A DNA stretch of 64,000 nt. Origin: a virus. The notes beneath the pieces are model-generated. The model was not told the origin of the DNA, ran no database searches, and saw only the letters and a list, made by a program, of their open reading frames with translations. Where the stretch lies: IMG/VR virus record IMGVR_UViG_3300037461_000986, positions 1-64,000 of that record, one strand, 5' to 3'. Of the stretch, positions 20,535 through 49,501 are shown one piece after another (within the stretch, counting starts at the first letter, position 1; each line of letters begins with the position of its first letter). A program made the translations under genes and the position numbers.

Positions 20535-20542
20535 CGGACCTC

Positions 20543-30500: not shown

Positions 30501-33500
30501 GGCCCAAACAGGTGCCCGCCGCCGTCCATCACGATGAGGTCATCGGCCGGATCGATCGCCACGATGAACACGGAATCCATGCGGACCTGCGCACAGACCA
30601 AGTAGAGCCCAGGAACCAGCGTGAACTTGGGCTCAGGGTAGACGCCGGGATACACTTGCACGACCCAGGGATTCGCGGGCGTCACGCCGCTCGCCTTCGC
30701 CTCGGCGCAGGCCGCCGCGATAGAGCCCACGCCCAGAGCGTAGTCGCACTGGCTGCCGACCTGGCCCACCGTGCGGAAGTTCGCGATGCTCGGGATATGC
30801 CAGTGGTTGGTCGCCCGGACGTTCGTCGTCAGCTGCGTGTTGTCCGCCGCGGTCAGGTGCTTGTAGTCGCCCGCGTTCAAGCCGTCGAGCGCGTTGTGCG
30901 TCAGCAGCGAGCCCGTGCGCGGCGTGATGTTGCGCCCCAGCCAGGTGACGTAGTTCAGCCCGCCCGGCTCCTTGCGCACGCGCCCCTTGACCGCGTTCGC
31001 GTAGAGGTCGTTCGTTTGAAAGATGACCGTGCCCAGCGCGGACCACTCCTGCGCCGGCAGCGCCCCCGGGATGAGCGCGTTCATCTCGGTCGCGGCGCCG
31101 TTCCGCGCGTCCTCCAGCGTGGCGTAGGCCGCCTGCCCCTGCACCGCAAAGAACTTGTAGGCCGCGTCGTTCGTCGCAAAGACGTGCGCCAGCACGAAGC
31201 CGCCGTCGGGCACCTCGGTCTGCTGCCACGCGCCCCCGGTCAGCTCGTTCCACGCGAGCCGCCCCGTGCCGGTGGTCAGCACGGCGTAGCCCGCGTTGAG
31301 CGCCCGGCGCCAGACCCCGGTGAGGCCGTCCCGGTAGTAGATGGGCAGGCCCGTCGTCGCCGCGACCGGGGCGGCAAAGTGCGTGAGGTCCTCATCCACC
31401 ACCATCGACGACTCGAGGCCGAACTGCGCGTGCGCGGCCGACGCGCCGGACTCGTCGGCCTGGAACGTCACGAGGTTCCCGCCCAGCGTCAGGTACATCC
31501 CGAACCGCCAGTGCATGGTCTCGTGGGTCATCGAGTCCATGGTGATGCCGTGCCGCTCGTTGGCGAAGTAGATCTGCTGCTTGTTAGTCGCGTCCCAGTA
31601 CACCCACGCGCAGAGCGCATACTCGCGGAACAGCTGGCCGTAGACCACCGTGCTCGGGTTCGTCGCCACCGCGAGCGCGCCGGTCGCGTCGAAGTAAATG
31701 CCGTGAATGCCCTCGGTGTCCGGGATGTCCACGGTCAGCGCGGTCGTCTTCGTGAACGTCTGGCCCTTCACCCAAAAGTGGTAGCTCGAGAACGGCGGCG
31801 AGTTCGGCCGGATCGTAAAGCGGCGGTTGGCGTTGTCGAAGCTAATCACCGAGTACAGGAACTGGTCCGCAAACGGAAAGCCGGTCGGCTCCAGGGTGTC
31901 GGTCTCGCGCAGCCGGCTGTGCGCCTGCATCTCGTCGATGGCGGTCTGGAACCGCGTGGCGAGCAGGCCCGAGACGGCGTTGCTGTACTCCTCGATGTTC
32001 GCGGGCTCATAGGTAGCGTCATAATCGTACTCCACGACCGACGACGCTGTGGCCGCGTTCGCGATGGCGCGCGTGCCGATCTCGGAGAACAGCGCGGTGT
32101 TGCCGTCCGCGAGCCAGAGCTGCGTCGTGCAGGCATCGATGACCCAGTTATTCCACGATTCAAAGATCTGGTAGGTGCCCTGCTGGATCGCCAGGCAGGT
32201 GCCGCAATCCTTGAAGCGCGCGGCGGTGCCACCTCCGTAGATGCCCGTTGACAGCACGCTGCCCTCCTGCACGAAAACGCCGTACAGGCAGTCCCGGAAG
32301 AGCACGTCGTGGATGCTCATGAAACGGCCTGAACCTTCGAGGCCATACCACATGCCCACGATATGCGAACGCGCGATCCCGGTCGTGGCCCCACGATTTG
32401 AATAGATGCCGTTGCCCATATAGATGCCACCGTCATCCGCGAACAGACAGCATCCGGAAATAGCTGTATTACCCGAGCCAACAAATCCGAGGTCTCGGAG
32501 ATCGACGTAGCATCGGTCCAGATACATGGTGGCTTTTTCGGTCGCGTTGAGCAGCGAGACTAAGCCCTCGAACGAAACGTTCTGGCAGGTGACGCGCTCG
32601 CCGAGGTAACGATCCATCAGCCATATCTGCGGCGATGCCTTGTTCTCTCGCTCTATGCGGAAGTTCTGGATCAGGACGTTGGCAATCGAGCTATCCTGCA
32701 CCTCGATGTAGTCGTCGACGTAAGCAATCGGCACGCCCGGAGCGGCCACAGTTGCCGGGCGAATGATGGTCATGTCCACGATGTCGAAGCGCGTGGCGCC
32801 CGACATATCTGGCAGGTCCGTAGACCAGAGCCGCGTCGCGGTGTTGCTCAGGATCGGGTAGTAGCTCGCGTTGCCCGCGACCTTGATGTAGCGCCCCTGA
32901 TATTCGTTCGGCGTCCACGTCGCGCCGCTCACGTCCACGTAGGCGTGATAGTCCCACGCGGTGCTCGTATTCTGGTACGCGGTCGGCGTGAGCGTCGCCA
33001 CGACCGTCGTGGGCGCGCCGATGATCTCGATGGTGCCCGCCCCGGTAAAGCGCTTGATCTGGAGGTGGCCCACGTTGTCCGCCGAGAGCACCGTCCCGCG
33101 CGCGTACACGCGCACGGTCACGAGCGGGAGCACCTCGCCGTAGTGCGTGCGCAAGAACGCGAAGGTCTTCTTCGCCGTGCCCCACGAGAGCCCATCCGCC
33201 GCGTCGCTGCCGACGTCGCCGTCCACGTAGAAGGTCTCGTCCGCCTTGATGGTGAGCGCGGCCAGCTCGTCGATGGCGGTCTGATAGCGCACCGCCGTGA
33301 GCTTCGACGCGTCGTTGCTGTACTCGTCCTGGAGGATCGGCAGGTAGTCCGCGTCGGAGTAGCACAGGCGCAGCTGAACCCGACTCTGAAGGCGCGCGGC
33401 GGAGAAGTCCGCGAACGAGCCCACGTCGTTGTCCGAGAACACGAACTCGTGGTCCACGGCCCAGCCGCGGATCTCAAACTCGGCCTGGCGCACGAGGTCG

Positions 33501-34798
33501 CCCATGCCGACGAACGCCTGCCGCACCGTGTCGAACCGCAACTGCAAGGGCGGCGCGATGGGGGTCGCGAAGACCACCTTCCCGCCCTCGACGAGCACGC
33601 CCACGTCGCAGTCTTGAATATAAATCGAGCGATTGAACACGATGACGCCCGAGCTGATAACGTCCATCGCGAACAGCTGATTGCCGATCCAGGACTCCAT
33701 CAGCGTGAAGCTGCCGCCCTCCATGACATAGACGCCGTACCCGGTCCCGTCGGTCGAATCGAAGGCCGTGTTGCCCGCGAGCACCTCGCACCCATAGACC
33801 AGCATGAGGCCGTAACTCGTATGATTGATGTAGCACTGCGAGAGGTCGCCCAAGGACAGGTTGGTGATGGCCGGCGGCGGGCTCGCGACGTAGGTATTAT
33901 AAACCTTGAACGAATCCTCGTAGCGCGGACCCCAGCCGCCGTCCTCGTCGATCCACATGCCCTGGATGGTCACGGGGAGGTTGCAGTGATGGACGTAGAC
34001 AAAGTTGTCCCAGTCGAAGGCGTACTTCACGCCCGGGTCCGCGTCGAGTTCCCGCAGCAGCTCCGGCGCGCTGTAGATGGTCGCCGCGTAGGCCCCGGCC
34101 TGGTCATCGCCGAAGCCCATCCACAGGGTCGTCGCGTTGTTCTCGCGGATCGGGTAGTACCACGTGTGCCCCAGGTTCACGAAGTGCCGCCGCCACTGGT
34201 TCGGCGTCCACGCCTTGGTCGGATCGGCCACCCACTGTAGCGAGCCGCGCACCTCCGGGTCGTTGCTGTAGGCGGTTGCGGTGAACGTCTCGACGGGCGT
34301 GAGCGCGCCTCGGATCGTGATGGACCCGCCGCCGTAGAACCCGTCCAGGATGAGCAGGCCCTTCGCGCTGCGCGCGCGCACGGGGTTGCGCCAATCGATG
34401 GTCACGGCCGCGTTGAGCTGGCGCGGCAGGCTGTCCGGCTCGTCGGCCATGAGAAAGCCGAAGGTCTTCTTCGCGGTGCCCCAGCTCAGGCCGTCGTTGG
34501 CGTCGTCGCCCGCGGTGCCGTCCACGTACATGGCGAGCGGCTCCTCGACGGCCTCGCTCCCCACGCGCTGCCACGCGCCGTCCGCGAAGACGAACATGCG
34601 CTGCACCGTCGTATCGAACACGAGCAGGCCCTCGGTCGGCGTGGCGATGGCCTCGCGCTGGGCGGTGCTCATGCGCGGCGGCAGGAGGCCCTTGGTCGTG
34701 CTGTTGATCGCCAGCATCGCGTCGGCCGGATGCGCGCCGCGCCCGACTAAGAACTCCCGATAAACGCCCGTCAGATTCCCACGCTTCACGTCGCCCAT
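24575..34798 (-). CDS. giant (3407 aa) multi-module tail fibre / tailspike protein with several right-handed beta-helix (pectate-lyase-fold-like) domains
   Basis: A single uninterrupted 10.2-kb ORF. Motifs seen: two copies of YVDG.(A/V)G(D/S)DA.DGLSWGTAKKTF; GGDYTDPATALAAI..IFPGEY; FNVKDYGAVGDGIADDTTAIRDTL (Pectate_lyase_3-type start); HxH fibre motifs; and a Gly7 hinge. Confidence 0.85.
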   Translation of the reverse strand: MGDVKRGNLTGVYREFLVGRGAHPADAMLAINSTTKGLLPPRMSTAQREAIATPTEGLLVFDTTVQRMFVFADGAWQRVGSEAVEEPLAMYVDGTAGDDANDGLSWGTAKKTFGFLMADEPDSLPRQLNAAVTIDWRNPVRARSAKGLLILDGFYGGGSITIRGALTPVETFTATAYSNDPEVRGSLQWVADPTKAWTPNQWRRHFVNLGHTWYYPIRENNATTLWMGFGDDQAGAYAATIYSAPELLRELDADPGVKYAFDWDNFVYVHHCNLPVTIQGMWIDEDGGWGPRYEDSFKVYNTYVASPPPAITNLSLGDLSQCYINHTSYGLMLVYGCEVLAGNTAFDSTDGTGYGVYVMEGGSFTLMESWIGNQLFAMDVISSGVIVFNRSIYIQDCDVGVLVEGGKVVFATPIAPPLQLRFDTVRQAFVGMGDLVRQAEFEIRGWAVDHEFVFSDNDVGSFADFSAARLQSRVQLRLCYSDADYLPILQDEYSNDASKLTAVRYQTAIDELAALTIKADETFYVDGDVGSDAADGLSWGTAKKTFAFLRTHYGEVLPLVTVRVYARGTVLSADNVGHLQIKRFTGAGTIEIIGAPTTVVATLTPTAYQNTSTAWDYHAYVDVSGATWTPNEYQGRYIKVAGNASYYPILSNTATRLWSTDLPDMSGATRFDIVDMTIIRPATVAAPGVPIAYVDDYIEVQDSSIANVLIQNFRIERENKASPQIWLMDRYLGERVTCQNVSFEGLVSLLNATEKATMYLDRCYVDLRDLGFVGSGNTAISGCCLFADDGGIYMGNGIYSNRGATTGIARSHIVGMWYGLEGSGRFMSIHDVLFRDCLYGVFVQEGSVLSTGIYGGGTAARFKDCGTCLAIQQGTYQIFESWNNWVIDACTTQLWLADGNTALFSEIGTRAIANAATASSVVEYDYDATYEPANIEEYSNAVSGLLATRFQTAIDEMQAHSRLRETDTLEPTGFPFADQFLYSVISFDNANRRFTIRPNSPPFSSYHFWVKGQTFTKTTALTVDIPDTEGIHGIYFDATGALAVATNPSTVVYGQLFREYALCAWVYWDATNKQQIYFANERHGITMDSMTHETMHWRFGMYLTLGGNLVTFQADESGASAAHAQFGLESSMVVDEDLTHFAAPVAATTGLPIYYRDGLTGVWRRALNAGYAVLTTGTGRLAWNELTGGAWQQTEVPDGGFVLAHVFATNDAAYKFFAVQGQAAYATLEDARNGAATEMNALIPGALPAQEWSALGTVIFQTNDLYANAVKGRVRKEPGGLNYVTWLGRNITPRTGSLLTHNALDGLNAGDYKHLTAADNTQLTTNVRATNHWHIPSIANFRTVGQVGSQCDYALGVGSIAAACAEAKASGVTPANPWVVQVYPGVYPEPKFTLVPGLYLVCAQVRMDSVFIVAIDPADDLIVMDGGGHLFGPHLIGVSGANKYLVRCETEGGFSSLMDLAIHSCSNGILIANGYQAVGTNLAMIIGGPANNIGTGLTVTGVGAFTGTPSFLAMQGFFANVSPLLLGYYANNPIQRVMKVTAGAQGFIATGSFRVAAKDNTADVIFVDDGGFCYLSAVELAGCETALHIGSVGAGSELLVHGSNLQGNTLDVKIESATGRAFINVTVDTLTQSIVAGAKVIGSVQSRDAESQAFIGEVNYQYLASGRQADLGEFFHQFISTGVIEGGEVTALGGLDVAIAAGKGWVRRGHPDHDAKWVTWDLTTPLALTASNTNYVYVEGATGLVKKTLTPVAYGDSILLRTIITDGVGIRFSHQTRTPMLAPAEQDRDYLLATRPRALISGLTCATGTGVRNITTDSGAYYIAKDRVDYTGVTDATWSYFYGAGGATEVPSVTQVNITEYDLAGVLTAMTADWFRADTLVLTSDGRLSLIYGTAEFETQPEAEAALTANIPTFLEASKFELYQVIVKQGVGIESFIDIRPQPATGGGGGGGAGTTVHGLLGGLTADDHPHYLLAAGTRAMSGDLQMGTHNITNVGTVDGVTVSAHAARHLPGGLDFLATAAPVAIGAANVEGDAASFAKSNHVHDHGAQSTDTHHAVASAGAAGFMSAAHFTKVETGIPDYAQYVTVAKSGGDYTDPATALAAIVDATASKRYCLQIFPGEYAVNLSLKDYVDIIGVGPPRSVVLKSSSGTVVTMSNANRADLRNLTVQRTSAVNGDHCIEVTAGTHLLFDCVIEQFSTDAYGCLIHTSGTGTLQINTGACTLVQAGTATGAGNDNVLVHSEGGTIIYVRGVNATLSIEDANDNAIAFKSDSAGTETVIWQNSIIDVNVTAAVYSGVAAAMKHSSVAIDKYIADTRIRVRKTVGGASGTGTAFICASLAGGAYIKSTHNVIDVTGFANNYLADIATGDLIVTEFDSVVAANGAIGAGTITNDDGTKLFHGVYARSTAAGLNCLPTHITTTTFTLGATANPIRYFYKGVSCTVAADKTATLDDGVGGSTAGYYWVYFNRATGTLLATKTFPGFTSTSNVVIAGISWNGSNYGLVSDERHSYLRDTQWHAWAHDTVGTRYRSGFDFAPTGTGLGATFTMSGGELWDEDIAFSALASASWPAPHALRTLYQTDANTYAFDTTPSTIPFRAGAAGRPTYVNLTGYVLTQASSAANRYFNFFVYGATDLHTPVYCVAETVSPAVAADNGYRSLVLARAAAFPSLANKNLSGELKPLYRLIVRADGVVQAIAGEDDYRLVSSLPMAGGITSTTASAVTFTPAGDISSANVQLALEELDAEKAALAAIPDYETSTANILMDGAVSVGTTSLVPRSDHRHPTDTSRLAAARGNWKLFHSNGSGVFSEIALGAAGTVLKGGGVAAAPSFGAVGGVFPVFNVKDYGAVGDGIADDTTAIRDTLTAAAAAGDRGATIFFPGGIYKTTGTITVNDVALTFRGPGAGAALINPTSTNLPVFQLTAGNEFITFRDLEIGTITAQVAGSSFIDTNGAHNVLIDRVNMFGWYYGIYIRGGSGKVTVSNVQLKDGVATNGVGVYVDNSTALDVNLGPWIMVTNGAGAKPLAGIMVKAAGAFSIQNVTVNNVTHGLYLYPSSGANVQYGFISDSMFDLAGTNGAYLYTPNQASPGQLRSIKFVGCWFGRANAAGVGHGVTLEGASNGVLDDVSFASCRFLDNGRHGINYLFGTNIRVNGSTVAGNSASASNTYDGIAIAAAVSDFELVGNRIGLAGTAANTQRYAINIAAGASNRYQIIQNDVGNNNTAPFINDGGTGVFKRIAYNNNAMPISAMPALTTAMQALAVSANVLTGSLLSLPVNSLLVGTRFVWEIVLIKTAAGTATWAVQVKFGTTGGTGDTAIASWTSGTNTAAIDQARLRIVCDILTLGAAATARCNAFYVNTLTSATGLGRIAGAPTATATFNSAASPAFIHVGVTPGASAVMTSMCDMQII

Positions 34799-34827: not shown

Positions 34828-35640
34828 CTAAAGCTGCACCCACAACACCGTCAGGTTCGCCGCGCCGGTCGCCGCGCCGGGCGCCGCCAGCGTGGCCGTC
34901 ACCTGGGTCGAGAGCGCGTACAGGTGCGAGGCGTCCGCGACCTGCACGGCCACCTCGGTCAGATCGTTTTCGTCGAGCGCCATGAACCGGTCCGGGGCGC
35001 CCGCGTCGCCCACGGTGAGCGTCGGCCCGGCCCCGTCGAACGCCTCGCTCACGTTGAGCTTGACCTCCAGCACGCGCGCGCTCGCGGGCAGCGCGGTGCC
35101 GATGCCGAACGGGCTCCCGGTCGCGTAGGTGAAGTCCACCGACCGCTTTTGCACCACGCCGCCCAGCGTGAGCGTCGCCGGGCCGAGGTCCACCCAGTCC
35201 GCGCCGTCCGCGTCCCACACGTACATATGGTCCGCGAGGAACTCGACGACGCCCCCGGCCAGCGCGTCGGTCACGCGCATGGTCAGGCCCTCGATCTCGG
35301 GGATTTCATCCCACGCCGCGCCGGTATCGTAATACAATCGCCGCACGGTGAAGGCCCCGCCGGTCGTTGTGCAGACGAAGACTCTCCCCACGGTTCCGGC
35401 GGCCGGTGGGGCCGCACCGTCTATCTGCCCCAGCACCACCACGTCCGCGCGCGTCCGCAGGTACTTGAGCGTCACCACGTCGTCCTCGTCGGACGGCGCG
35501 GCGGCCTGGAGGCGCGTGTAGGCCGTGCCCGCCGCGTCGCGCACCTGCACGACCCCGCCCGCGTCGATGAGGCGCGGCCCGCCCTCGCCGAGCTGGAGGT
35601 CGCCGCTGACGCCCGTCAAGGTCCAATGTCGTGAGCCCAT
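34828..35640 (-). CDS. hypothetical fibre-associated protein
   Basis: 270 aa. It contains DDVVTLKYL and GRVFVCTTTGGAFTVRRLYYDTGAAWDEI, which are fibre-type motifs. It is directly upstream of the giant gene. Confidence 0.6.
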   Translation of the reverse strand: MGSRHWTLTGVSGDLQLGEGGPRLIDAGGVVQVRDAAGTAYTRLQAAAPSDEDDVVTLKYLRTRADVVVLGQIDGAAPPAAGTVGRVFVCTTTGGAFTVRRLYYDTGAAWDEIPEIEGLTMRVTDALAGGVVEFLADHMYVWDADGADWVDLGPATLTLGGVVQKRSVDFTYATGSPFGIGTALPASARVLEVKLNVSEAFDGAGPTLTVGDAGAPDRFMALDENDLTEVAVQVADASHLYALSTQVTATLAAPGAATGAANLTVLWVQL

Positions 35641-35649
35641 GCGGCCCTC

Positions 35650-36027
35650 CTATGCGGGCGCGCGGGTCACGCGATAACGGAACCGCGTGGCGTCGCCGAC
35701 CGATGACTTGGCTAACACTAACTGAGCTTGTCCGGCGGCGATAGCGGCCGACCAGGTCAGTCCGGCGATCTCCGGGTCCTGGTAGCTGAAGGCGTGGTCG
35801 TCGATGGCGGCCACGCCGCCGTGGTGCGTGATGGTAATCAGCCCGGTCTGCGCGCGCCCGCTGGCGGGCAGCGTGAGCACGTACTCCACCACGAAGCCCA
35901 CGTAGCTCGCGACCGCGCCGAGGGCGATGGTGTCCGTGGCGTCGTCGAGCCCGTCGAGCGTGGTCCAGGCCAGCGCGACGTAGCGCGCGTCCGCGGCGGC
36001 CGGGGTCAGGACGTTGCGCAGTTCCAT
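35650..36027 (-). CDS. hypothetical protein
   Basis: 125 aa with coherent composition, packed between neighbouring genes. Confidence 0.55.
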   Translation of the reverse strand: MELRNVLTPAAADARYVALAWTTLDGLDDATDTIALGAVASYVGFVVEYVLTLPASGRAQTGLITITHHGGVAAIDDHAFSYQDPEIAGLTWSAAIAAGQAQLVLAKSSVGDATRFRYRVTRAPA

Positions 36028-36030: not shown

Positions 36031-39000
36031 CTACTCCGTGATGCGTACTTTGGTGCTGCCGGCGGTCGCGCGCACGGCGTCGATCCAAACGTACTGCCCG
36101 GCCCCGGGCGTCTCGCCGAACAGCCCGAAGGCGCCCGGCAAAATGTGATTCGTATCGACCGCGGTGGCGACGCCCGCGTGCGCGCCGCTCATGGTCAGGG
36201 TGATGGTGCTGCCGGTCGCGGCCAGCTCAAGCGTGACGACCGCGCTCGCCGTGTAGGTCACGGCCTCGGTGGTCAGCACGGAGACCTGCTGCACGCCCGC
36301 GCCGTCGCGGTAGTAACGCGCGATGACCAGGTTGGCCGTGGCGGCCCCCGTACAATGCAGATAGCCCGCATAGCCGTGCGCCAGGCCTAGGCCCGCGAAC
36401 GCCCACTGGAGGCGCGTGAACAGGCCCACCTTGCCGCCCGACGGGGCCTTGACCTCCGCCAGCACGGCGCAGTCCCGCAGGTAGGGATAGGCGATCCAGC
36501 GCTCCCAGCCGACCTGGTCACAGCGCGCCTGATTCGACGAGATGTTCCAGCCGTTGCCGGTCTGGATGATGACGTCCCAATTGCTGCCGAGGTTGGCGTC
36601 GTCCCCGCGCGTGAACGTGTCGCTGTAACGGAAGGTGCCGCGCGCCGAGACCTGCCCCGATGTCGGGTCGCGGTCGCCGATGAGCAGCGCCCCCTGCGGA
36701 AAGGGCGCCTTGGTGTAGCGCGCCTTCCAGAGGCGGTCCATCTCGAGCGTCTGCGGCTCGGCCCACCAGCCGCCGCCGTGCAGGATGACGCTCGCGGGCG
36801 CGATCCAGGTGGCGGGCGTCATGCGCGAGGCCATGATCTCCCAGCCCTCGGCCCAGCCGTTGCGCACGACCAGCCCGCTGCCGATGCCCGCGTGATTCCA
36901 GATCTCGATCTGGATCGGCGTGTCGAACCGGCTTAGCGCGGTGTCGCGGATGTACCCGCCCCAGTAGCAGGGCACGTCTATGCTGTCCATATCCTCGCCT
37001 TGAACGCGCCACAGCCGCAGCACCGGCTCGGGCGTACTAACCGCAGTGCCGCGCACGTACTCGCGCTGGGCGCTCGAGGAGTTGACCGCCCACAACTCAA
37101 AATGGCTGCCCTCGTCACCGCCGATGGTGGCCAGCTTGACGTCGCTAGTCATCGAGATGAACGGCGCGGCCGGCAGCCAGTCCAGTTGCAGCCGGAACCA
37201 GCGCGGGTCGAGCGCGTCCGCCCAGGTCGCCGTCTCGACCGCGCGGGTCGTGCCCGCGGGGCTCCAGCTCGACGGCCACAGCGTATCGACCTGCACCATC
37301 GGAGCATCGACGAGCATGCCCTGCGCTTGCCGATAACCCCGCACGTATAACCGCAACTCGTCCTCGGTGTAGTCCGGACGCGCCATGGCAAGGTTGACGG
37401 CCGCATGGTCACGCCACCACCACTGCGGTGGGTGCATGTAATAAGTACGCACGCGACGCGTCGTAATAATGCCTGCACCGCTGTCGCCCGGCGCGATGTT
37501 GAGGCGTGCGTACATAGCGGACTGCGTGGCCGGCGCTACAGTATCCGCGCGCACGCTCCAACTCATGTTCGCTTTGTCCCACGCGCCGACATCAATATGG
37601 CTGTTTAGCGTCACATAGCCGTAGTTGTAATCGGCCGGCCGCCCCATCTCGTCATCGGCCACGTAGTGCGCGTAAAAGCCGCGCATATTATTTCTATCGG
37701 TTTCATCCGTCCCATCCGACAGCCGCTCGAGCCCGCCGAACAGCATGTGTACGTATTTGCCCAACGTTGAGTCATAGGTGCGCACGCCGCGCCAGTAGCG
37801 GAACGGACGAATCCACTCCTCGTCCCCGGCGTAGTCTTCGGGGTCGCCGTCATCGGACAAACCCGCCTGGAGCACGTGGTTCTCGACCGCATCGAAACCC
37901 GCGCCGTTCCAATGGATGCTCCAGGTCGAGTGATACACGTCCCCGCTGCCGACGTGCTCGCCGCCATAGAACCAGACCGTATCCACGCCGTCGTAGACCA
38001 CCGCGCAGTGCATAATCGAAGGCGGCTTGCCCGGTTCCGTGTCATCGAACGCGCCGGGGTCCACGTCGTACTCGTCCAGGGATCCATCGCTGGGATCGAA
38101 CACGCGCACGCGCAGGCCCAGCTCGCCGTCATACGTCCCGCCGACGAGTACGATCATGCCGTCCAGGTCGCCGCCCGAGCAGAAGGCGGAGCCCATGCCG
38201 TAGTCGGCATCGCCCAGCAGATCGGAGCCCACTTCGGTCAAGGTCTCGGCCGTGCAGTTCGCCTTGTGCACCTTGGGCGTGTCCGCCGCCGCACCCCGAC
38301 CGCCAAAGATATAGAGGTTGCCATTCGCATGATCGAGGCAAGCACCCGCGTCCTCGAGTGAATCTGTATGAGTCGTAAGAGGAGTTGGCGTCCAAACCCC
38401 AACACTGAGTGTGTACTTCACAAATACCGCACTCGTCGGAACATCTTTATCGCCCAAACCCACGAGATAAATTACGCTCGTCGGAGTCGACTTACCAAGA
38501 CGCCATTGCTTATGTAATGAAAACTGAGTCCAAGATGCACCCTCGAAAAGAAATACAGGGTCGCTCACTAAATCGCACGAATACACACGAAGTTCACTAG
38601 CTCCAGTCTCACCTTCCGCACGCGCCGCCAGCACGACGCTAGTGGTTGCTCCATGTATAAATACGATATCGGCGCCACCCTCTTCATCATACCGATCTGG
38701 CTCCGGCAACTCCATGGTCACGTCGATGCTCGCGCGCACCGGCCGACCCGTACTGAGCATGTGCTTCTCCGCGGACGTGCTCGCCGCGAGGATCGCCCTC
38801 GAGCGGCTCCAATACTGCGGCCGATAACCGTCAGCGGTAATTGTTGACCACTCCTCGAACTCGGAGTTGGGCACCTGGTTGTCGCCCACCTCGTGCTCGA
38901 TGAGCACCGCCGCCTTGCGCTCCGTGAGCCCGCCCTGCGCCACGAGGGCCATGGCGATGATGTGATCGAAGTTGTAGTCGGAGGCGGACTTGTAGGTCTC

Positions 39001-40053
39001 CAAGTCCGACGTGACGACCTGGCCCGACACCTTGTTGTGCTCGCCGACCATCGACACGCAAGGGATGCCGCCGTTCTCGGTCTGGCTCAGCGTCGAGAGG
39101 TACGAATGCCAGTGCGGCCGCCAGCGCGACCGGAAGTAGTTCACCCACAGGTCCGGGTTCGGCCCCTCGTGCACGCGCCGCGCTTGCACCGCGCGCAGCA
39201 GGCGCCAGATCGTCCAGTCCGCCCAGAGCTTCTCATAATCATCTTCACCCAGATTGCGGAAGCACCGGTCACGCGACACGTAGCGCGCGCCGTCACCCGC
39301 CGTGGCGTGCTGGTCGAGCGCCCACGCAATCGGACGCGGGTCGCCGCCGTTGTACCGCCATGCCTCCATCGCCGTTGCCTCGAGGCAGCAGGTGATGGGC
39401 GCGTCGCCCTTGCTCTCGCCCGCCGTCGGAACGAACTCGTCCCAATACCAGGGCCAGACGCGATTGAGGTTGATGCCCGTATCGACGCCGCTCGGATGCG
39501 GGCCGAGCAGGTTGATGTTGCGCTGGCCAAGGTAGTAGCCGTCCGGGTTGCAGCACGGCATGAAGACGATGTTGAACTGGTTCCGCAACGGCGCGAAGTC
39601 GTCGTGCGTCATCAGCAACTCGAACGCCTTGAGCGTGCCGAGTACGCCGTCCGGCTCGTTGCCATGGATCAGCGTATCAACTAGGAAATACTCGGGCGCA
39701 TCGATCATATAGGTGAGCAGCTCGAGCGGGCGGCCGTCCTGCGATAGGCCATCCCCGCAGGCGATACGCTGAAAGCCGCTGACGCCCGCCAGCGCCGCCT
39801 CGAGGGTATCAAGCTCATCAGTATAAACGTGCGTCTGCTCGCCAACGCGGTCGTAGCAACCGATCTCATTGGAATACCGCACGAATCCCTGGGATTCCGA
39901 GAAGCGGTGATAGATGGGAATGTTGCCGACGCTGGCCAGAATGCGGTCTGCCTGCACGCGCGGGGTGTTCGGCCCCACGGGCCTGCCCGAGATGGGGCAC
40001 CACGCATCGGAGGCGCGCGAAAAGGCCATTTGCTCAAACGTGAGCCGCTTCAT
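36031..40053 (-). CDS. M14 zinc-carboxypeptidase domain fused to a Kelch-like propeller and a ConA-like C-terminal domain (1340 aa)
   Basis: The start was re-set to ATG 40053 (MKRLTFEQ...), which overlaps the upstream stop as ATGA. M14 motifs appear in order: LIHGNEPDG (HxxE, 39655-39666), VFMPCCNPDGY, GINLNRVW, ALDQHAT, VGEHN. Four hhhhGG blade motifs follow (LYIFGGRG, MIVLVGGTYDG, VWFYGGEHVG, HMLFGGLERL). Confidence 0.8.
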   Translation of the reverse strand: MKRLTFEQMAFSRASDAWCPISGRPVGPNTPRVQADRILASVGNIPIYHRFSESQGFVRYSNEIGCYDRVGEQTHVYTDELDTLEAALAGVSGFQRIACGDGLSQDGRPLELLTYMIDAPEYFLVDTLIHGNEPDGVLGTLKAFELLMTHDDFAPLRNQFNIVFMPCCNPDGYYLGQRNINLLGPHPSGVDTGINLNRVWPWYWDEFVPTAGESKGDAPITCCLEATAMEAWRYNGGDPRPIAWALDQHATAGDGARYVSRDRCFRNLGEDDYEKLWADWTIWRLLRAVQARRVHEGPNPDLWVNYFRSRWRPHWHSYLSTLSQTENGGIPCVSMVGEHNKVSGQVVTSDLETYKSASDYNFDHIIAMALVAQGGLTERKAAVLIEHEVGDNQVPNSEFEEWSTITADGYRPQYWSRSRAILAASTSAEKHMLSTGRPVRASIDVTMELPEPDRYDEEGGADIVFIHGATTSVVLAARAEGETGASELRVYSCDLVSDPVFLFEGASWTQFSLHKQWRLGKSTPTSVIYLVGLGDKDVPTSAVFVKYTLSVGVWTPTPLTTHTDSLEDAGACLDHANGNLYIFGGRGAAADTPKVHKANCTAETLTEVGSDLLGDADYGMGSAFCSGGDLDGMIVLVGGTYDGELGLRVRVFDPSDGSLDEYDVDPGAFDDTEPGKPPSIMHCAVVYDGVDTVWFYGGEHVGSGDVYHSTWSIHWNGAGFDAVENHVLQAGLSDDGDPEDYAGDEEWIRPFRYWRGVRTYDSTLGKYVHMLFGGLERLSDGTDETDRNNMRGFYAHYVADDEMGRPADYNYGYVTLNSHIDVGAWDKANMSWSVRADTVAPATQSAMYARLNIAPGDSGAGIITTRRVRTYYMHPPQWWWRDHAAVNLAMARPDYTEDELRLYVRGYRQAQGMLVDAPMVQVDTLWPSSWSPAGTTRAVETATWADALDPRWFRLQLDWLPAAPFISMTSDVKLATIGGDEGSHFELWAVNSSSAQREYVRGTAVSTPEPVLRLWRVQGEDMDSIDVPCYWGGYIRDTALSRFDTPIQIEIWNHAGIGSGLVVRNGWAEGWEIMASRMTPATWIAPASVILHGGGWWAEPQTLEMDRLWKARYTKAPFPQGALLIGDRDPTSGQVSARGTFRYSDTFTRGDDANLGSNWDVIIQTGNGWNISSNQARCDQVGWERWIAYPYLRDCAVLAEVKAPSGGKVGLFTRLQWAFAGLGLAHGYAGYLHCTGAATANLVIARYYRDGAGVQQVSVLTTEAVTYTASAVVTLELAATGSTITLTMSGAHAGVATAVDTNHILPGAFGLFGETPGAGQYVWIDAVRATAGSTKVRITE

Positions 40054-41414
40054 AGTGGATTCGCCCCTCGCGCAAGGTCGCGCATGCGCGCGGAAAGCGC
40101 GCGCGCTGTAGCTCGGTTGATGCGGTTGGTGCCGTAGGCGACCCGCGAGATCATGCACTCGGCGGGCGAGCCGTCCGTCGCGCTATTGCCGATGATGAGC
40201 GTGCCGGGCGTGGGCGTCTGCGGATACCACGTCGCCGGATTGAACGCGCCGTCTAGGCGCTCGCCGTTGACCCAGAGCGTGGCCTGCGTATCGGTATTCA
40301 CCTCCTCCCAGGTCGCCACGATGCCCAGCGCCGCGAAGTCGTCCCACGAGGTCGGCCCATCGAGGAACGCGAAGTTCGTCCCGGACGTGTCCCCGAGCGT
40401 GACCACCACGCGGTCGTAGGTGTCGCTCATGGACACGCGCAGGCGCCATGTATCGCAATCGAGGTTGAGCATGCCCAGGAAGCGGTAGTTCGCGTTGCCC
40501 GCGTTGTCCGTGTGCCCGCGATCCGTCGAGCGGTCCGGCAGCACCACGCTCATCGCCAGCCACCCGCTCGGGCGCAGGCAGACCTCGGCCACCGAGGACC
40601 GCACGGCGTACTCCAGGCGCGAGTCGGCGCCGAAGCCCGCGCGCGTGATGCGCTCCGAGCCGGTGTACTGATTGAAGAACCCCGGGAACGCGAACTCCCA
40701 CTTGCCGTTATCGGCCACCACGGCGATCGAGCCGTAGCCGGTGGTCGAGGCGTTGTTCGGCACTAGGATGCTGAGCGCCCACCAACCGTCGTACCCGAGG
40801 CTGCGATAGACCGGGGTCGAGGTGGCGCGCGTGCCGGCCGTCGCGTTCCAGCCGAGCGTCACGATGCCGGCCGGGTCCTCGGTGCCGCTCTCCCCGCGCA
40901 CGAGCACCTGGAACTGCCGCAGGTAGGTCGCACTGCGCGCCTGGGACTTCTCCACGACGCAGTCATTGACCGCGTCCAGCGAGCTGTCGAGGTACACCCG
41001 GCGGCGGCTCGTGGCGATGTCGGGATCGCGTGCGATGCTCGGGAAGTCCGCGCCATCCTCGCTGAGCTGGCTCGCGTCCGTCGGCGCCACCACCGCGTAG
41101 TTGTACTTCGAGGTCCCATAGCCAACGTGATAGTTGGCGTTGGTCATGTAGAACGCACCGACGCTGCCGAGGCAGCGGTCCTTGCCCGCGGCCGTGTCGA
41201 TGCCGTCGGTCATGAACGTCCACTGCTTGTGGCTGTTCATGATGAGCCACTTGGCGGTGCTCGCCCCGCTCGCCGTCTCGTAGACCTCCGCGAGCATGGG
41301 GCCGCCCGCCTTCGCCGGCCCGACCGCCTGCTGCGCGCGGAGCGCGTCCCAGTAGAAGCGCGGGCGCAGCCGCAGGATCGCGCTCGCCCCGGCGCCTACC
41401 AGGCCGCCCATCAT
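40050..41414 (-). CDS. LamG-like lectin-domain protein
   Basis: The start was re-set to ATG 41414 (MMGGLVGAG...), an ATGA overlap with the upstream stop. The C-terminus TLWVNGERLDGAFNP....GTLIIGNSATDGSPAECMISRVAYG is a LamG signature. Confidence 0.65.
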   Translation of the reverse strand: MMGGLVGAGASAILRLRPRFYWDALRAQQAVGPAKAGGPMLAEVYETASGASTAKWLIMNSHKQWTFMTDGIDTAAGKDRCLGSVGAFYMTNANYHVGYGTSKYNYAVVAPTDASQLSEDGADFPSIARDPDIATSRRRVYLDSSLDAVNDCVVEKSQARSATYLRQFQVLVRGESGTEDPAGIVTLGWNATAGTRATSTPVYRSLGYDGWWALSILVPNNASTTGYGSIAVVADNGKWEFAFPGFFNQYTGSERITRAGFGADSRLEYAVRSSVAEVCLRPSGWLAMSVVLPDRSTDRGHTDNAGNANYRFLGMLNLDCDTWRLRVSMSDTYDRVVVTLGDTSGTNFAFLDGPTSWDDFAALGIVATWEEVNTDTQATLWVNGERLDGAFNPATWYPQTPTPGTLIIGNSATDGSPAECMISRVAYGTNRINRATARALSARMRDLARGANPL

Positions 41415-44311
41415 CGCAGCACCCCGAGGCTCATCGGCAGCACGCGCACGTAGAAGGTGGCCTCGTTCGTCGCGTGGTTGTTCCGCACATGCAGGAACGC
41501 GCGCCCGCGATTGGCGGGCGTGCTGTCCTCGTTGCGGAAGGGCACGTTCTCGAACTCGACCACCGAGCAGACCAGCGAGTCGGCCGCCCACGACGAGCCG
41601 TCCACGAGCACCTCATCTAGGTCCATGTTGCCCGCCGAGCGCGCGAGGATGCGCACCAGCTCGTAGCGGTTCGCGTCCTCGAAGACGACCGCCGCCTCGT
41701 CCGTGTCAAACATGTCCTCGTCGTTCACCTCTACGTAGTCCTGCGCCGCGGGCAGGATCGCGGAGAGGTAGCTCTGCCGCGCGACGCCGCTTGCCTGCCA
41801 CATCACGTCGCGCCCGTATCCTTGCGACGTGCGGTAGACCCGCAGCCGGAAGTCGGTCGAGTAGTTGTCCGGGTCGGCGACCACGGCCCAGACCTGCACG
41901 AGTTGCAGGATGCCCGCGTCGCCGGTCGTCAGGATCTCCAGCATCTCGTCGCCGCCCGCGCTCAGCGCCGCGGTGGCGTAGTCCGCCTGCGCCTCGGCAA
42001 TCGAGTCGGCCAGCTCCCACGTCCCCGGCGTGCCGGCCCCGGTGCAGCGATACTTGATGCCCTCGTCGTCGAGCACCTCGTGCCCGGCCGCGTAGGTGCC
42101 GGCCGTCGGCGCGCCGGTCGCGCCCAGCGGCGTGCAGCCCACCGCGTCGAACAGCTTCTTCGCCGCGACTACCTCATCCGTGGTCGTGGTGACCGCGTTG
42201 GCGATGGCGACCCCGGCCGCGCTCAAGGTCGGGTAGACGTCGGCAGTGAGGTCGGGCTTGAGCTTGAGCTTGCCGGTCGCGAACTGGAGCCCGCCGTCGG
42301 AGGGGAGCGCGACGCGCGGCTTGCCGAGGCCGTCGTCCTCGATGCCGTCGCCGTATGGTGATGGAATGGCCGGAGGAGAAGCAGACGGCTGGAAACCGCC
42401 TGCAGTAACCGCAATGTCAAACGTCTGACTCGGGACCACGCCCGTAACGAATGCCGTGCCGTAAAGCGTGCCCGCCGTCTCGAGCTCGAAGCCGAACGGT
42501 TCCGCCGACCGATAGGTATCCGCGTCGCTCAGGTCGACGACCATGGTATAGACCGGCTCGAGCCGAGCGACGTCCTGATACAGGATGACCGTGAGCGTGC
42601 CCGTGCCCGTGGTAGGCGTGACCGCCAACATGTAGCCCACGCCTTCGGTGACATATAGGTTCGCATCGACCGCTGTGAAGTCCGTGTCGTCTACGAGATC
42701 AATAGCGGTCTCTTCAAAGCTAACGAGGTGCACGGCACCACGAGCAGCAAGCTCGTCAAGCGCGTTTTGATAATTCCTCGCCGAAAGTCCCGAGACCGCG
42801 TTGTCATATTCGTTCGGCACTTCGATGTCGAAGTCCAGGTTTGTATAGACAACGTCCAAGCCAGCACGACCTTTGAGCGTCTTGGCGGCAAGCTCTGCAA
42901 ACGTTCCTTCGTCGTCAGTTCCGAAAAGGATCTCCGTACCGACATCCCAGCCCAAGAGGCTGACCGTGTCCAATAGTACAATCGCACCCTGGCCATGGAT
43001 GCCCGTGGTGCACGTATCAAACCGCGTCTGCGGAGCTACGCCGCCCGGATGAACCAATTCGAGAATGCTGTCATAAAAGTCTATGCCGACATCGCAGTCG
43101 GCGAAGTAGACCCCCTCTTGAGAGAGAATCGTACCGCCGTGCGTCATATATACGCCAAAAAGCTGTCGACTAAAGGTGGTGCGGTAAAGCGTTGCGTAGG
43201 CGTGATCGTATGAATTATACCCCCATCCTGTGTCATCCAGAGAATGAAAGGCACAATTCCAAAAACTAGAAGAGCTGTACCCGTCTAGGACGTAACCATA
43301 GTTTGATAAGTTGTAATAGCAACCGTAGTGATTAATACCAACGATATTGGAGCTGATCAACGAAGTGGCTGATATGCGGGTCAGGTCCACTTTATAACAA
43401 TTAAGAAAGTTCGCACTGTCAGTCCACGAAGCCGCCTCGTCCAGCCAAAGGTTCTCGATGCTCACTGGCACGCCGCACTGCCTTGCACCAAAATAAATCG
43501 AAGGCCATTCGCCGAAATCATACTTGACACCAGGGTCGGACTCGAGCTCTTCCAGCAGCTCTGGTGCTGCATAGATTGTTCCGACAGGAGTTCCCGCTAG
43601 TCCCGTATGCAGCGCCATGTAAAGCGTAGTCTCGTCATTCGAGTACACCGGATATTGCGCAGAGCCAGGAGCTAAACCAACGAAGTGCCGCCGCCATTGT
43701 TCAGGCGTCCATGCCTTTGCCGGGTCTTGAATCCAGATGCGAGAACCGCGCGTTGCAATATCATTTTGATAAGCTGTCGCAGTGAATGTTTCAACCGCAG
43801 TGAGGACGCCAACGAGGGAAATGCGTCCAGTGCCGTAGAACGCCTTCAAATAGAGATGCCCGTCGGCGTTGCGCGCGCGAATGTCATTACGAAAGTTGAT
43901 GGTCAACACCGCGTTGATTTCGCGCGGCAGGGCATCGGTCGCTCCGGGGATCAAAAAGCCAAACGTCTTCTTCGCCGTGCCCCAGGTGAGGCCATCGTTG
44001 CCGTCGTCGCCAGCCGTGCCGTCGACATAGTAGGTTGTGTCGACGTCAATGGCCGAGCCACCCATCGTCTGCTCGACCCAATCGCCGTTGGTGATGCCGC
44101 CAGAGAGCGTATAGACCTTGTTCTCGGACAGTACCTTGACCCACATGCCCTCCTTGCGGCGGTCATCAGTGATGGCATCGCGCTCGAGGGAATCCGCCAC
44201 CGCGCGGAATCCGCCTCGCCCGTAGGTGTCATCGTGGGTCGGGTATGGATCGGACGTGAGGGACGGGGCGATGAAGCCGCCGACGCGAACGCTGCCGGGT
44301 ATTGTTGGCAT
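41411..44311 (-). CDS. tail fibre / tailspike with a beta-helix module paralogous to modules of the giant protein
   Basis: 966 aa. Residues 94-523 (YYVDGTAGDDGNDGLTWGTAKKTFGFL...EYDNAVSGLSARNYQNALDELAA) are collinear with aa 90-515 and 523-958 of the 3407-aa protein. Confidence 0.75.
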   Translation of the reverse strand: MPTIPGSVRVGGFIAPSLTSDPYPTHDDTYGRGGFRAVADSLERDAITDDRRKEGMWVKVLSENKVYTLSGGITNGDWVEQTMGGSAIDVDTTYYVDGTAGDDGNDGLTWGTAKKTFGFLIPGATDALPREINAVLTINFRNDIRARNADGHLYLKAFYGTGRISLVGVLTAVETFTATAYQNDIATRGSRIWIQDPAKAWTPEQWRRHFVGLAPGSAQYPVYSNDETTLYMALHTGLAGTPVGTIYAAPELLEELESDPGVKYDFGEWPSIYFGARQCGVPVSIENLWLDEAASWTDSANFLNCYKVDLTRISATSLISSNIVGINHYGCYYNLSNYGYVLDGYSSSSFWNCAFHSLDDTGWGYNSYDHAYATLYRTTFSRQLFGVYMTHGGTILSQEGVYFADCDVGIDFYDSILELVHPGGVAPQTRFDTCTTGIHGQGAIVLLDTVSLLGWDVGTEILFGTDDEGTFAELAAKTLKGRAGLDVVYTNLDFDIEVPNEYDNAVSGLSARNYQNALDELAARGAVHLVSFEETAIDLVDDTDFTAVDANLYVTEGVGYMLAVTPTTGTGTLTVILYQDVARLEPVYTMVVDLSDADTYRSAEPFGFELETAGTLYGTAFVTGVVPSQTFDIAVTAGGFQPSASPPAIPSPYGDGIEDDGLGKPRVALPSDGGLQFATGKLKLKPDLTADVYPTLSAAGVAIANAVTTTTDEVVAAKKLFDAVGCTPLGATGAPTAGTYAAGHEVLDDEGIKYRCTGAGTPGTWELADSIAEAQADYATAALSAGGDEMLEILTTGDAGILQLVQVWAVVADPDNYSTDFRLRVYRTSQGYGRDVMWQASGVARQSYLSAILPAAQDYVEVNDEDMFDTDEAAVVFEDANRYELVRILARSAGNMDLDEVLVDGSSWAADSLVCSVVEFENVPFRNEDSTPANRGRAFLHVRNNHATNEATFYVRVLPMSLGVLR

Positions 44312-47778: not shown

Positions 47779-48714
47779 TCAGGCGGTGCGAACGTGGGTG
47801 ACCTTCACGACGGCGTCTTCTTCCTGCCAGTTGCAGCCGACGCGCAACGTTGCGACCGCGATCCACTCGCCGGTCTGGACGTCGTAGTCGGTGTTGATTT
47901 TGATCTTGCGCCACACGCCCCAGATGAAGTTCTTCGGGTGCGTGTAGATGATGTTCGTGCAGCTGCCGCCGTTCAGGTTGTCCGGGAACACGGGGATGGG
48001 CATGATCGGGCGGCCGCCGTAGCGCAGGGCGTCCATGGATTCCAGGAACCGGTCGCCGAGCACTGTGGCGCGATCCGCCAGGTAATCCCGGTAATCGATC
48101 TCGGCGTCCTCGGAGGTCCAGAACTCCTGCTTGTTGCGCAGGCGGTTGTACTGCGACGGCATGGCCTTCACGGCGGACTTCAGCACGCCCTTGTGGATCG
48201 GCACGGTGCCGCCGTTGACGGTGTGCGAGCTGGTCAGGGCCAGCATGCCGTTGAACTGCGCGAGGAACGCGTCGGCCGACCCGGTGCTGCCGTTGACGGC
48301 CAGCTCGTCGGAGTCGAGCGCGATGTGCTCGGAGAACATGCTCATGATGGTGTTCTTGAACGAGCCGCCCTCGATGTTGTCCTCGAGGTACTCGTCGGTC
48401 AGCCGGATCTCGGCCTTCATGAGCTTGGTCTCGATGGTGACCTGCTCGGTCGTCGGCTCGACGCGCTCGGTCAGCGTGAGGGCGCGGCCGCTCTGGGCGG
48501 GGCGCAGCACGCGGCCGCTGATGCCGACCTTGGGCAGCACGGTCGTGTGCGACATCATCGGCTTGACCGTGACGCTCTTCAGCACGACCGACTCCTTGAT
48601 GTAGTCGGTAATGAATGAGGAGGCGACCTCGTCGGGGAGGTAGCCGCCGTTCGATACGAGGTCGGCGACCTCGGCATCGGCCTTTTGGATGATGTTCAGA
48701 TTGGACTCGGCCAT
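47779..48714 (-). CDS. major capsid protein, HK97 fold
   Basis: 311 aa. ..LMKAEIRLTDEYLEDNIEGGSFKNTIMSMFSEHIALDSDELAVNGSTGS..FLAQFNGMLAL.. fits the HK97-family capsid pattern. It follows the protease and scaffold genes. Confidence 0.85.
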   Translation of the reverse strand: MAESNLNIIQKADAEVADLVSNGGYLPDEVASSFITDYIKESVVLKSVTVKPMMSHTTVLPKVGISGRVLRPAQSGRALTLTERVEPTTEQVTIETKLMKAEIRLTDEYLEDNIEGGSFKNTIMSMFSEHIALDSDELAVNGSTGSADAFLAQFNGMLALTSSHTVNGGTVPIHKGVLKSAVKAMPSQYNRLRNKQEFWTSEDAEIDYRDYLADRATVLGDRFLESMDALRYGGRPIMPIPVFPDNLNGGSCTNIIYTHPKNFIWGVWRKIKINTDYDVQTGEWIAVATLRVGCNWQEEDAVVKVTHVRTA

Positions 48715-48730: not shown

Positions 48731-49501
48731 CTAGCGGAGCGTGTTCATGTCGGGCGCCCACAGTTTGCGCGGCGCGGCCTTCTTTGGGTCGGGAACGGCC
48801 TTGGCGATCTCCCCGGACGGCATCGCGTGCGATGCGCCGACGGTCGCCTTGAGCGCGCGCGCGCGGGCCTCGGCGGCGACCTGCGCCTGCCGGGCCTTCT
48901 CCAGCTCCGCGCGGACCGCGGAGAGTTCATGCTCGCGCTCGACCAGGGCCTTGGCGATCGCATCGCTCGGGTCGGCCTTGGTCGTCTCCACGCGCGCGGG
49001 CGGAGCGAGAGGCGGGTCGGACAGCGCGGCGGGAGGCGGCGCGACAGCGGCGGCATGCTTCTCGAAGGCGACCTCGGCCATAGCCAGGGCGATGGCCTCG
49101 CTGGCCGCGACCAGCTTCGCCAGGAAGTCCACAGCGGGGACGACCGGCAGGGAGGGCTCGGAAGGGGATGCGCTCAGCTTGCCCATGGGTTCCTCTCGGG
49201 GGGACGTGGCAGCGGGCGCCGCGTCCGAGTCATTCGAAGCGCCGGGGGGGGCGCTCCGGGATGCACTGTCTTCGGTCTTGCTGGCGGGCGCCATCGCCGC
49301 GCCGCACGCCGGGCAGGTCACGTCGTCGGGATCGACGGCCGCGCCGCACTCGGGACAGGTCAGGGCCTTGATGATCATGAACGCCTTCTGTCGGTTCGCG
49401 CCGGCCGTGACCAGCGACACGAAGCTGACGTCCATATTCTCCAGCCGGGTCACGGGCTTGGTCTGCTCCTCGCCCTTGTCCAGCGCTGCGGTGTCATCCA
49501 T
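48731..49501 (-). CDS. scaffold-like protein with a zinc ribbon and a coiled-coil C-terminus
   Basis: The start was re-set to ATG 49501 (MDDTAALDKG...). It contains VSFVSLVTAGANRQKAFMIIK, then CPECG..x12..CPACG, then an Ala/Glu-rich helical tail (..EHELSAVRAELEKARQAQVAAEARARALK..). It lies immediately upstream of the capsid gene. Confidence 0.5.
   Translation of the reverse strand: MDDTAALDKGEEQTKPVTRLENMDVSFVSLVTAGANRQKAFMIIKALTCPECGAAVDPDDVTCPACGAAMAPASKTEDSASRSAPPGASNDSDAAPAATSPREEPMGKLSASPSEPSLPVVPAVDFLAKLVAASEAIALAMAEVAFEKHAAAVAPPPAALSDPPLAPPARVETTKADPSDAIAKALVEREHELSAVRAELEKARQAQVAAEARARALKATVGASHAMPSGEIAKAVPDPKKAAPRKLWAPDMNTLR

Follow-up and report, generated by a model that had tools for sequence, protein, structure and literature searches.

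Among the enzymes with which phage virions breach the envelope are glycosidases, transglycosylases and M15/M23/CHAP-type peptidases. The virion-associated peptidoglycan hydrolases, for example phi29 gp13, Tuc2009 Tal and T5 Pb2, bear lysozyme, transglycosylase, M15, M23, CHAP or NlpC/P60 domains on the tape measure, the hub or the tip, and to our knowledge no M14 enzyme has been described among them. Bacillus phage phiNIT1 encodes a poly-gamma-glutamate hydrolase, PghP (Pfam PF05908), a zinc enzyme whose fold is like that of carboxypeptidase A; it removes a peptide capsule, so that phages do target peptide surface polymers with a peptidase of this kind. For the T5 tape measure, a peptidase motif is on record (PMC11445458). 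The subject of this work is a minus-strand gene at positions 36031 to 40053 of a 64,000-nucleotide stretch of viral DNA (IMG/VR record IMGVR_UViG_3300037461_000986, positions 1 to 64,000, hereafter the window), whose product joins an N-terminal M14 zinc-carboxypeptidase domain to a Kelch propeller and a LamG/ConA-like domain. It is encoded in a structural (tail) module, as the virion-associated peptidoglycan hydrolases are, and it likewise places an enzymatic domain with a presumed action on the cell wall on a tail-module protein.

The best explanation, to which we give a probability of about 0.55, is that this M14-Kelch protein is a component of a virion appendage and carries a competent carboxypeptidase that would trim peptides of the bacterial envelope. 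Incorporation into the virion, the attachment site, catalytic activity and the substrate are the parts of this reading that we infer.

The longest open reading frame at the locus runs from 36031 to 40158 and opens at a GTG. An ATG at 40053 overlaps the stop codon of the upstream gene (ATGA), is preceded 8-16 nt upstream by the Shine-Dalgarno-like stretch GAGGGG, and encodes the Met at which all 34 full-length homologues begin (37-85% identity to the 1340-aa protein). The true start is therefore placed at ATG 40053, and the product has 1340 aa, without a signal peptide. Its parts are as follows.

36031..40053, minus strand: whole gene, 1340-aa M14-Kelch-LamG protein (stop codon 36031-36033)
39844..40053, minus strand: residues 1-70, conserved N-terminal extension before the catalytic domain (invariant columns in the 34 homologues)
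38899..39843, minus strand: residues 71-385, M14 zinc-carboxypeptidase domain (Pfam, HHalign, Foldseek, conservation)
38674..38898, minus strand: residues 386-460, linker, little conserved (predicted local distance difference test score, pLDDT, <50; identity 32%)
37591..38673, minus strand: residues 461-821, six-bladed Kelch beta-propeller (model, Foldseek, Pfam in relatives)
36604..37590, minus strand: residues 822-1150, beta-sandwich region, fold without confident assignment (pLDDT 30-88; conserved motifs)
36034..36603, minus strand: residues 1151-1340, C-terminal LamG/ConA-like jelly roll (pLDDT ~85-90; BFVD matches)

Residues ~71-385 are a true M14 zinc-carboxypeptidase domain, on evidence well above what chance would give. 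The hallmark motifs lie in the order HGNE (residues 130-133, nt 39655-39666), NPDGY (169-173), NLNR (195-198), DQHA (247-250) and GEH (337-339), and the third histidine ligand follows the HxxE motif within the ~110-125 residues that are characteristic of M14. The Pfam profile Peptidase_M14 (PF00246) was matched with E=3.1e-9, at 37.3 bits for a gathering score of 21.6, over residues 119-207 only; all 34 full-length homologues also matched it, the best with E=8.6e-23. When a family profile built from the N-terminal 455 residues was run against PDB sequences, carboxypeptidase B (2e-9), insect carboxypeptidase A (2e-7) and carboxypeptidase T (2e-6) were recovered, in alignments spanning HxxE, NPDG, NLNR and the histidine of DxH. 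With canonical M14A-type sequences, HHalign reached a probability of 99.9% (E=2.4e-30), with confident columns up to H249; a forced global alignment was unreliable past that residue. The AlphaFold2 (AF2) model of the M14 part has a pLDDT of 62.5 and a predicted template modelling score (pTM) of 0.66, the core being confident and the loops not. Foldseek matched this model, moderate in quality, to the alpha/beta fold of carboxypeptidases T, A and B (E=2e-10, probability 1.0, TM 0.46-0.60) over 320-360 columns and the full target length. Other searches were poorer: with the single sequence only REP34 was found in the PDB (E=0.07), neither NCBIfam, M14 subfamilies included, nor PHROGs was matched, and a homologue search seeded with the N-terminal alignment yielded fragments only.

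The canonical M14 alignment starts only at about residue 71 (HHalign). The segment before it has its own invariant residues (W18-C19-P20, G23, R32, Y48, F51, Q55-G56 and Y60) and is always found at the extreme N-terminus in distant relatives; it is possible that residues 1-70 serve as a docking segment.

The residues expected of an active enzyme are conserved. None of the 34 homologues, whose identity falls to 37%, departs from H130, E133, R178, N197, R198, H249 or E338. When the N-terminal profile was run against 1.84 billion cluster representatives, 34 clusters were found below 1e-30, in whose proteins (640-1836 aa) the module of residues 1-452 is whole and N-terminal; the same seven residues are nearly invariant in ~25 further 50%-identity clusters (proteins of 640-1836 aa), and M14 was accompanied by Kelch in 8 of the 8 distant cluster proteins scanned. 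H130, E133 and H249 are the predicted zinc ligands, and H249 aligns with the DxHS/T histidine of carboxypeptidases A and T. The set binding the substrate carboxylate is R178, after NPDG, and N197-R198 in INLNR, which aligns with DLNRN; these are the equivalents of R127 and N144-R145 of bovine carboxypeptidase A (CPA) and are kept in nearly all relatives. E338 and Y306 are also invariant or nearly so, in a region that gives no significant sequence or profile alignment. There the model runs from a loop to a short helix (315-321), a strand (333-341) and a long helix (351-373), an order of loop, helix, strand and helix that is the one of CPA, and Y306-x-x-S-x-x-x-x-x-W315 resembles, by eye, what we take to be the Y248-Q-A-S-G-G-S-I-D-W257 segment of the bovine enzyme. 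On this model, E338 would correspond to Glu270 of CPA, the putative general base, and Y306 to Tyr248. Five further basic residues, R257, R308, R310, H314 and H316, are invariant and specific to the family; they may be expected to line the S1' pocket, and as a speculation they hint at an acidic C-terminal residue in the substrate, Glu or diaminopimelate.

Could the M14 domain be a non-catalytic binding module, a pseudo-enzyme that recognises a peptide C-terminus or an anionic surface ligand, or that docks the protein on the virion? Its position at the N-terminus, the usual anchoring end of a fibre, its large low-confidence insertions and a C-terminal half too divergent to be aligned with active M14 enzymes would suit such a role, and R178 and N197-R198 would be kept for binding alone. 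Pseudo-enzymes, however, usually lose at least the general base, whereas here E338, the putative general base, is strictly or almost strictly retained, as are all three zinc ligands, even in very distant members. The M14 domain is moreover the most conserved of the protein: identity to the distant half of the family is 51% for M14, the highest value, 45% for the C-terminus, 32% for the linker and 28% for Kelch, the lowest. That M14 is the most and Kelch the least conserved argues for selection on catalysis, a pattern that seems to fit an enzyme better than a decayed scaffold. We consider a pseudo-enzyme quite unlikely, and the M14 domain is probably enzymatically competent, as predicted from its conserved residues.

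Behind the linker, the model of residues 441-1340 has a pLDDT of 71. The Kelch propeller (~462-821) has six blades and 24 strands, mostly with pLDDT >90, and Foldseek matched it to KLHDC10 and KLHL12 in the PDB (E ~1e-10); the Pfam Kelch match is below the gathering score in the window protein and above it in relatives. The beta-sandwich region that follows holds three highly conserved motifs, RRxRTYYMHPPxWWWREH, DAPMVQxGTLWPSSWSP and GGGWWxEP. The C-terminal jelly roll (~1155-1339) is confident, with a pLDDT of ~85-90. It gives no Pfam match in the target itself; in the BFVD library it matches LamG/ConA-like proteins of Caudovirales with a probability of 0.96-1.0, and also a Rhodococcus phage tail fibre. 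The model of residues 441-1340 further matches cyanophage structural proteins in this viral library, and Laminin_G_3 is present in neighbouring genes of relatives. The protein does not fit the plan of a classical trimeric tail fibre or tailspike, with its N-terminal anchor, its trimeric shaft or beta-helix and its variable receptor-binding tip at the C-terminus: neither a coiled coil nor a beta-helix was predicted in the target models, the C-terminus is conserved (45%) and the internal propeller is the most variable part. This most variable domain is probably the specificity determinant.

An earlier note on this DNA, made from the letters alone, had read the five M14 motifs in this order, a 1340-aa product, a succession of M14, Kelch-like and ConA-like domains, and a location within a fibre cluster. 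The profile score, the AF2 model with its Foldseek matches and the start shared by the 34 homologues bear out the first three of these, with a six-bladed propeller and a LamG/ConA-like jelly roll, and the location is supported by two neighbours, a 966-aa protein with a tail PHROG match at its N-terminus and a 3407-aa protein with a pectate-lyase-like domain, as well as by homologues found elsewhere at the distal end of tail modules. Its assignment of the HG(N/D)E variant to the branch of murein-peptide amidases (MpaA) and gamma-D-Glu-mDAP peptidases is not supported, since the closest enzymes by profile and by fold are the M14A carboxypeptidases B, A and T. The PDB profile search returned carboxypeptidases A, B, T, M, D and N and bacterial M14 chains, with no MpaA-named chain at E<=1, and the top 50 Foldseek matches are of the A, B, T and U types. 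The M14B (N/E) subfamily, too, usually has HGNE.

The M14-Kelch gene does not stand alone. The real unit is a cassette of three genes, A, B and M14-Kelch, which was found in 7 of the 7 distinct contexts examined. In the window, the neighbours that concern us are the following.

41411..44311, minus strand: cassette partner A, 966 aa, of which the C-terminal ~450 aa are the conserved cassette module
40050..41591, minus strand: cassette partner B, ~450 aa (longest open reading frame from GTG 41591; its stop overlaps the M14-Kelch start, ATGA)
34828..36027, minus strand: two small genes downstream of M14-Kelch (products of 125 and 270 aa), with synteny limited to the closest relatives
24575..34798, minus strand: fibre-like protein of 3407 aa, in which residues 2841-3051 form a pectate-lyase-like domain

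The true start of B is probably near 41380-41420, because homology begins at residue 72, and the ATGA overlap of B with M14-Kelch indicates translational coupling. In contigs L004-L007, which are close relatives, the C-terminal ~450 aa of the 966-aa protein, a B of ~450 aa and the M14 gene are always together, and it is the small downstream genes and the giant fibre that vary. The same trio occurs with much more distant M14-Kelch homologues in five further contigs, where an A of 417-526 aa and a B of 434-455 aa come before the M14-Kelch gene. Relationships among the partners were measured by single-pass phmmer (Z=1e6), the E-values of iterated jackhmmer being circular and set aside. All A proteins are linked pairwise (1e-13 to 1e-131) and the B proteins transitively (window to L012, 4e-7; L012 to L018, 2e-34; L018 to L009, 2e-18). 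Neither partner has a match in Pfam, the PDB or cultured phages, and in PHROGs only the N-terminus of the 966-aa A is matched, to a tail protein. A relation of B to the C-terminal domains of the M14-Kelch protein was sought by HHalign and rejected.

Two observations concern partner A and the giant fibre. The 966-aa protein contains an inserted module (residues 43-523) with two paralogous stretches in the 3407-aa protein, at residues 47-514 (40% identity) and 517-982; this repeated module is missing from the shorter A proteins of other contigs. In L002, a 173-kb relative, the equivalent of the 3407-aa protein is split (15361-20843) into a 1030-aa gene with PTL_trimer and a 797-aa gene with pectate lyase/beta-helix, and the last 800 aa of the 3407-aa protein are 79% identical to the L002 equivalent. 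The 3407-aa protein is likely the polysaccharide depolymerase of the block that holds the M14-Kelch gene. The 270-aa downstream protein matches PHROGs of unknown function.

The place of the cassette differs between genomes: gene order in three contexts would suggest attachment at the tail tip or baseplate, and in three myovirus contexts attachment in the neck region. In L009/L010, the cassette is the last part of a siphovirus-style tail module, in which the tape-measure gene is followed by those of a Dit-sized protein (266 aa), a 592-aa protein matching a tail-fibre PHROG and two small proteins, and then by A, B and M14; replication genes come next on the other strand. It also ends the structural genes in L017, before a glycosyltransferase and an integrase, and in L018, before early genes. 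In L012 a T4 gp15-like gene comes just after it, in L016 it is flanked by T4 gp13-like and gp15-like genes, and in the window its block is placed between the capsid gene and those of the head-tail adaptor and Neck1. These last three positions would suit a neck, collar or head-attached appendage, on which M14 would act on the outer envelope at first contact and not at the point of tail penetration, and T4 fibritin (wac), which is encoded next to gp13, offers a precedent. Gene position is, however, weak evidence for an attachment site; in L009/L010, L017 and L018 the cassette is far from neck genes, and the baseplate region of the window also has large open reading frames without assignment. A neck or head appendage appears unlikely to us.

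In L009, a GTP cyclohydrolase I and a radical-SAM protein are encoded beside the DNA polymerase (17939-20096), which suggests a 7-deazaguanine DNA modification pathway.

The same gene orders bear on whether the protein is part of the particle. It might instead be a soluble late enzyme, freed at lysis or secreted, that degrades peptides of the envelope or matrix and helps progeny to spread as a free depolymerase or assists in lysis. PghP is soluble and has a carboxypeptidase-like fold, no PHROG structural family matches the target, and in Stenotrophomonas phage vB_SmeS_BUCT702 the M14 gene adjoins holin and amidase genes. A protein of 1340 aa with a propeller and lectin-like domains and without a signal peptide does not look like such an enzyme, however; its gene is within a structural operon, translationally coupled to its neighbours, the cassette ends tail modules in several lineages, and the C-terminal domains resemble phage structural and tail-fibre proteins. 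We hold this possibility to be very unlikely.

Under the virion-appendage reading, the M14-Kelch protein would be produced together with partners A and B, whose genes lie upstream in the conserved, translationally coupled cassette, and would probably assemble with them into an appendage, either fibre-like or peripheral to the baseplate or neck, with M14 at the N-terminus. The Kelch and LamG/ConA-like beta-sandwiches would bind glycans or peptides of the envelope and hold M14 against the cell surface, where it would remove C-terminal residues from envelope peptides carrying a free carboxylate. The likeliest substrates would be the stem peptides of peptidoglycan or another anionic peptide polymer, poly-gamma-glutamate for example. 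As the family occurs on contigs of 35-67% GC and its enzyme domain is well conserved, a near-universal substrate such as stem peptides is favoured; an anionic peptide polymer is possible. M14 may work beside the pectate-lyase-fold depolymerase of the same block: M14 and pectate- or pectin-lyase genes stand side by side in the window, in L002 and, among phages of Bacillus megaterium, in Palmer and Moonbeam, which suggests a paired attack on glycan and peptide. These cultured phages, and BUCT702 with an M14 gene that closes its tail module, are independent precedents.

Several points weigh against this reading. Residues 236-385, the C-terminal half of M14, were aligned neither by the PDB profile nor by local HHalign; for this reason the catalytic role of E338 is deduced from its invariance, the order of elements in the model and a likeness seen by eye, and the model itself is moderate (pLDDT 62.5, TM 0.5-0.6). 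The enzyme occupies the N-terminal end, by which a fibre is normally attached to the particle, and no trimerisation element was seen in the target. In the myovirus contexts the cassette is between head and neck genes, which leaves neck/collar and baseplate as competing sites. A carboxypeptidase trimming the free ends of stem peptides does not alone open the sacculus. Among 185,579 GTDB species genomes no relative was found, hence no prophage copy and no clue to the host. The literature on M14 enzymes or carboxypeptidases in connection with phage tails or Kelch domains was searched and yielded nothing relevant, nor any experimental work on a family member or on the cultured-phage proteins discussed below.

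The rest of the window belongs to the structural region of a myovirus as well, all genes being on the minus strand. Terminase (61945-63549, minus) and portal (58338-60212, minus) genes are followed by those of a RyR-domain protein, a MuF protein and the major capsid protein (47779-48714, minus). After the capsid gene comes the block with the M14-Kelch gene, which holds fibre-like genes and ends with the 3407-aa protein, then a head-tail adaptor and Neck1, and then sheath, tube, hub, tape measure and baseplate wedge; the large unassigned open reading frames mentioned above lie in this baseplate region. The phage, uncultured and high in GC, is contractile-tailed and only distant kin of cultured phages. 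No DNA similarity to cultured phages was found, its capsid and sheath relatives are just 26-38% identical, and the block that holds the M14-Kelch gene is absent from one of the sheath relatives, Streptomyces phage BRock.

Some of these genes deserve a mention in their own right. The RyR domain (Pfam, 3.8e-11) belongs to a 244-aa protein (57211-57945, minus) encoded between the portal and MuF genes. The MuF-like minor head protein (52083-56354, minus) has 1423 aa and shows Hint_2 and intein-splicing matches at residues 386-551, directly after the MuF domain: it is either a head protein with an intein or one with a Hint-linked C-terminal cargo of ~870 aa. With its MuF and Hint domains, this open reading frame was rejected as a tape measure. 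The 3407-aa one was likewise rejected as an N4-like virion RNA polymerase, the phage having a sheath, a tube and a tape measure and the protein a pectate-lyase domain. A 286-aa protein with a zinc-ribbon motif at residues 78-99 is encoded immediately upstream of the capsid gene (48731-49591, minus), where a scaffold or protease would be expected, and between the Neck1 and sheath genes (20543-21508, minus) is the gene of a 321-aa protein that has an IPT/TIG domain at its N-terminus.

Should the M14-Kelch protein be active and in the virion, a metallocarboxypeptidase, that is an exopeptidase, would be added to the enzymes with which phages breach the envelope; trimming free peptide ends in wall or capsule would then be useful for adsorption or penetration, and the family would be a new source of wall- or capsule-modifying enzymes. 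It may represent an unstudied phage route for trimming peptides of the bacterial surface. The cassette, with two partners that match no known structure, is a portable, putative appendage module in many uncultured phages. A bolder version of our reading is possible but doubtful: the cassette would build a previously unrecognised appendage, its M14 domain would act during adsorption on stem peptides or an anionic envelope peptide and would be the first virion-associated wall enzyme of the M14 class, and the three genes would be exchanged jointly among genomes of siphovirus-type, temperate and large myovirus kinds (contigs of 35-67% GC).

Compared with known enzymes, the M14 domain has the fold of the M14A carboxypeptidases, such as carboxypeptidase T of Thermoactinomyces vulgaris (1OBR, 3V38) and carboxypeptidases A and B (for example 7EQX and 1JQG). 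The HxxE, NPDG, (D/N)LNR and DxH motifs align with theirs, and the equivalents of R127, N144 and R145 are kept. The target differs from them in having neither pro-domain nor signal peptide, in its extra 70-aa conserved N-terminal extension, in a C-terminal half that cannot be aligned and contains insertions, and in two motifs that are invariant in its family, H-x-T-x-G-D-G-x-R-Y and Y-x-R-S-R-x-x-P-H-x-H. Its M14 domain is also fused to ~950 aa of propeller and beta-sandwich within a phage structural operon. PghP, in contrast, is a small soluble enzyme of related fold with no structural fusion, and PF05908 was not matched in the Pfam scans of the target family.

Among cultured phages, four carry M14 proteins and are possible experimental entry points. 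The 'Kelch motif family protein' of Pseudoalteromonas phage J2-1 (ATN93378.1, 1098 aa; MF988720, 4362-7658) is the sole cultured-phage protein with the order of the target, M14 (Pfam, 8.7e-14) then Kelch, and is 25% identical to it over residues 77-433; the BFVD match A0A2D1GN51 (1098 aa) is taken to be this protein from its length alone. It is shorter than the target, cannot be aligned at its C-terminus and bears no peptidase annotation, and its gene adjoins the terminase and lacks the two cassette partners. The V22 paper mentions J2-1, not its M14-Kelch protein. The 'M14 family metallopeptidase' of BUCT702 (759 aa; L014, 5429-7708) matches the family profile (E=1.5e-10) and has in common with it an unusual H...AGDG motif after the third zinc ligand. 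Its gene closes the tail module, preceded by that of an M23 tail protein and followed by genes for holin and amidase; unlike in the target, M14 is C-terminal in this protein, and there is neither Kelch nor cassette.

The other two are from phages of Bacillus megaterium: gp14 of Palmer, annotated 'carboxypeptidase A, peptidase M14-like' (613 aa; L013, 6416-8257), and gp85 of Moonbeam, annotated 'carboxypeptidase M14 domain' (521 aa; L015, 5707-7272). The two phages are unrelated, a podovirus and a herellevirus. Both M14 genes have the HGNE motif and stand in tail modules directly after a pectin-lyase-fold tailspike gene, an arrangement comparable to that in the window, with its M14 gene and pectate-lyase fibre. 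Their products are far shorter than the target, without Kelch and without A and B partners, and past the core motifs they have no detectable relation to the family profile. B. megaterium capsules contain polypeptide besides polysaccharide, which would fit a two-enzyme attack on the capsule. With tail-module M14 genes annotated in GenBank for Palmer, Moonbeam and BUCT702, and an M14-Kelch protein in J2-1, the earlier note overstated the case in calling the arrangement unusual, and it missed the conserved three-gene cassette. M14 enzymes in tail modules are already in the databases but unexplored; it is the 1340-aa architecture, together with the three-gene cassette, that is undescribed.

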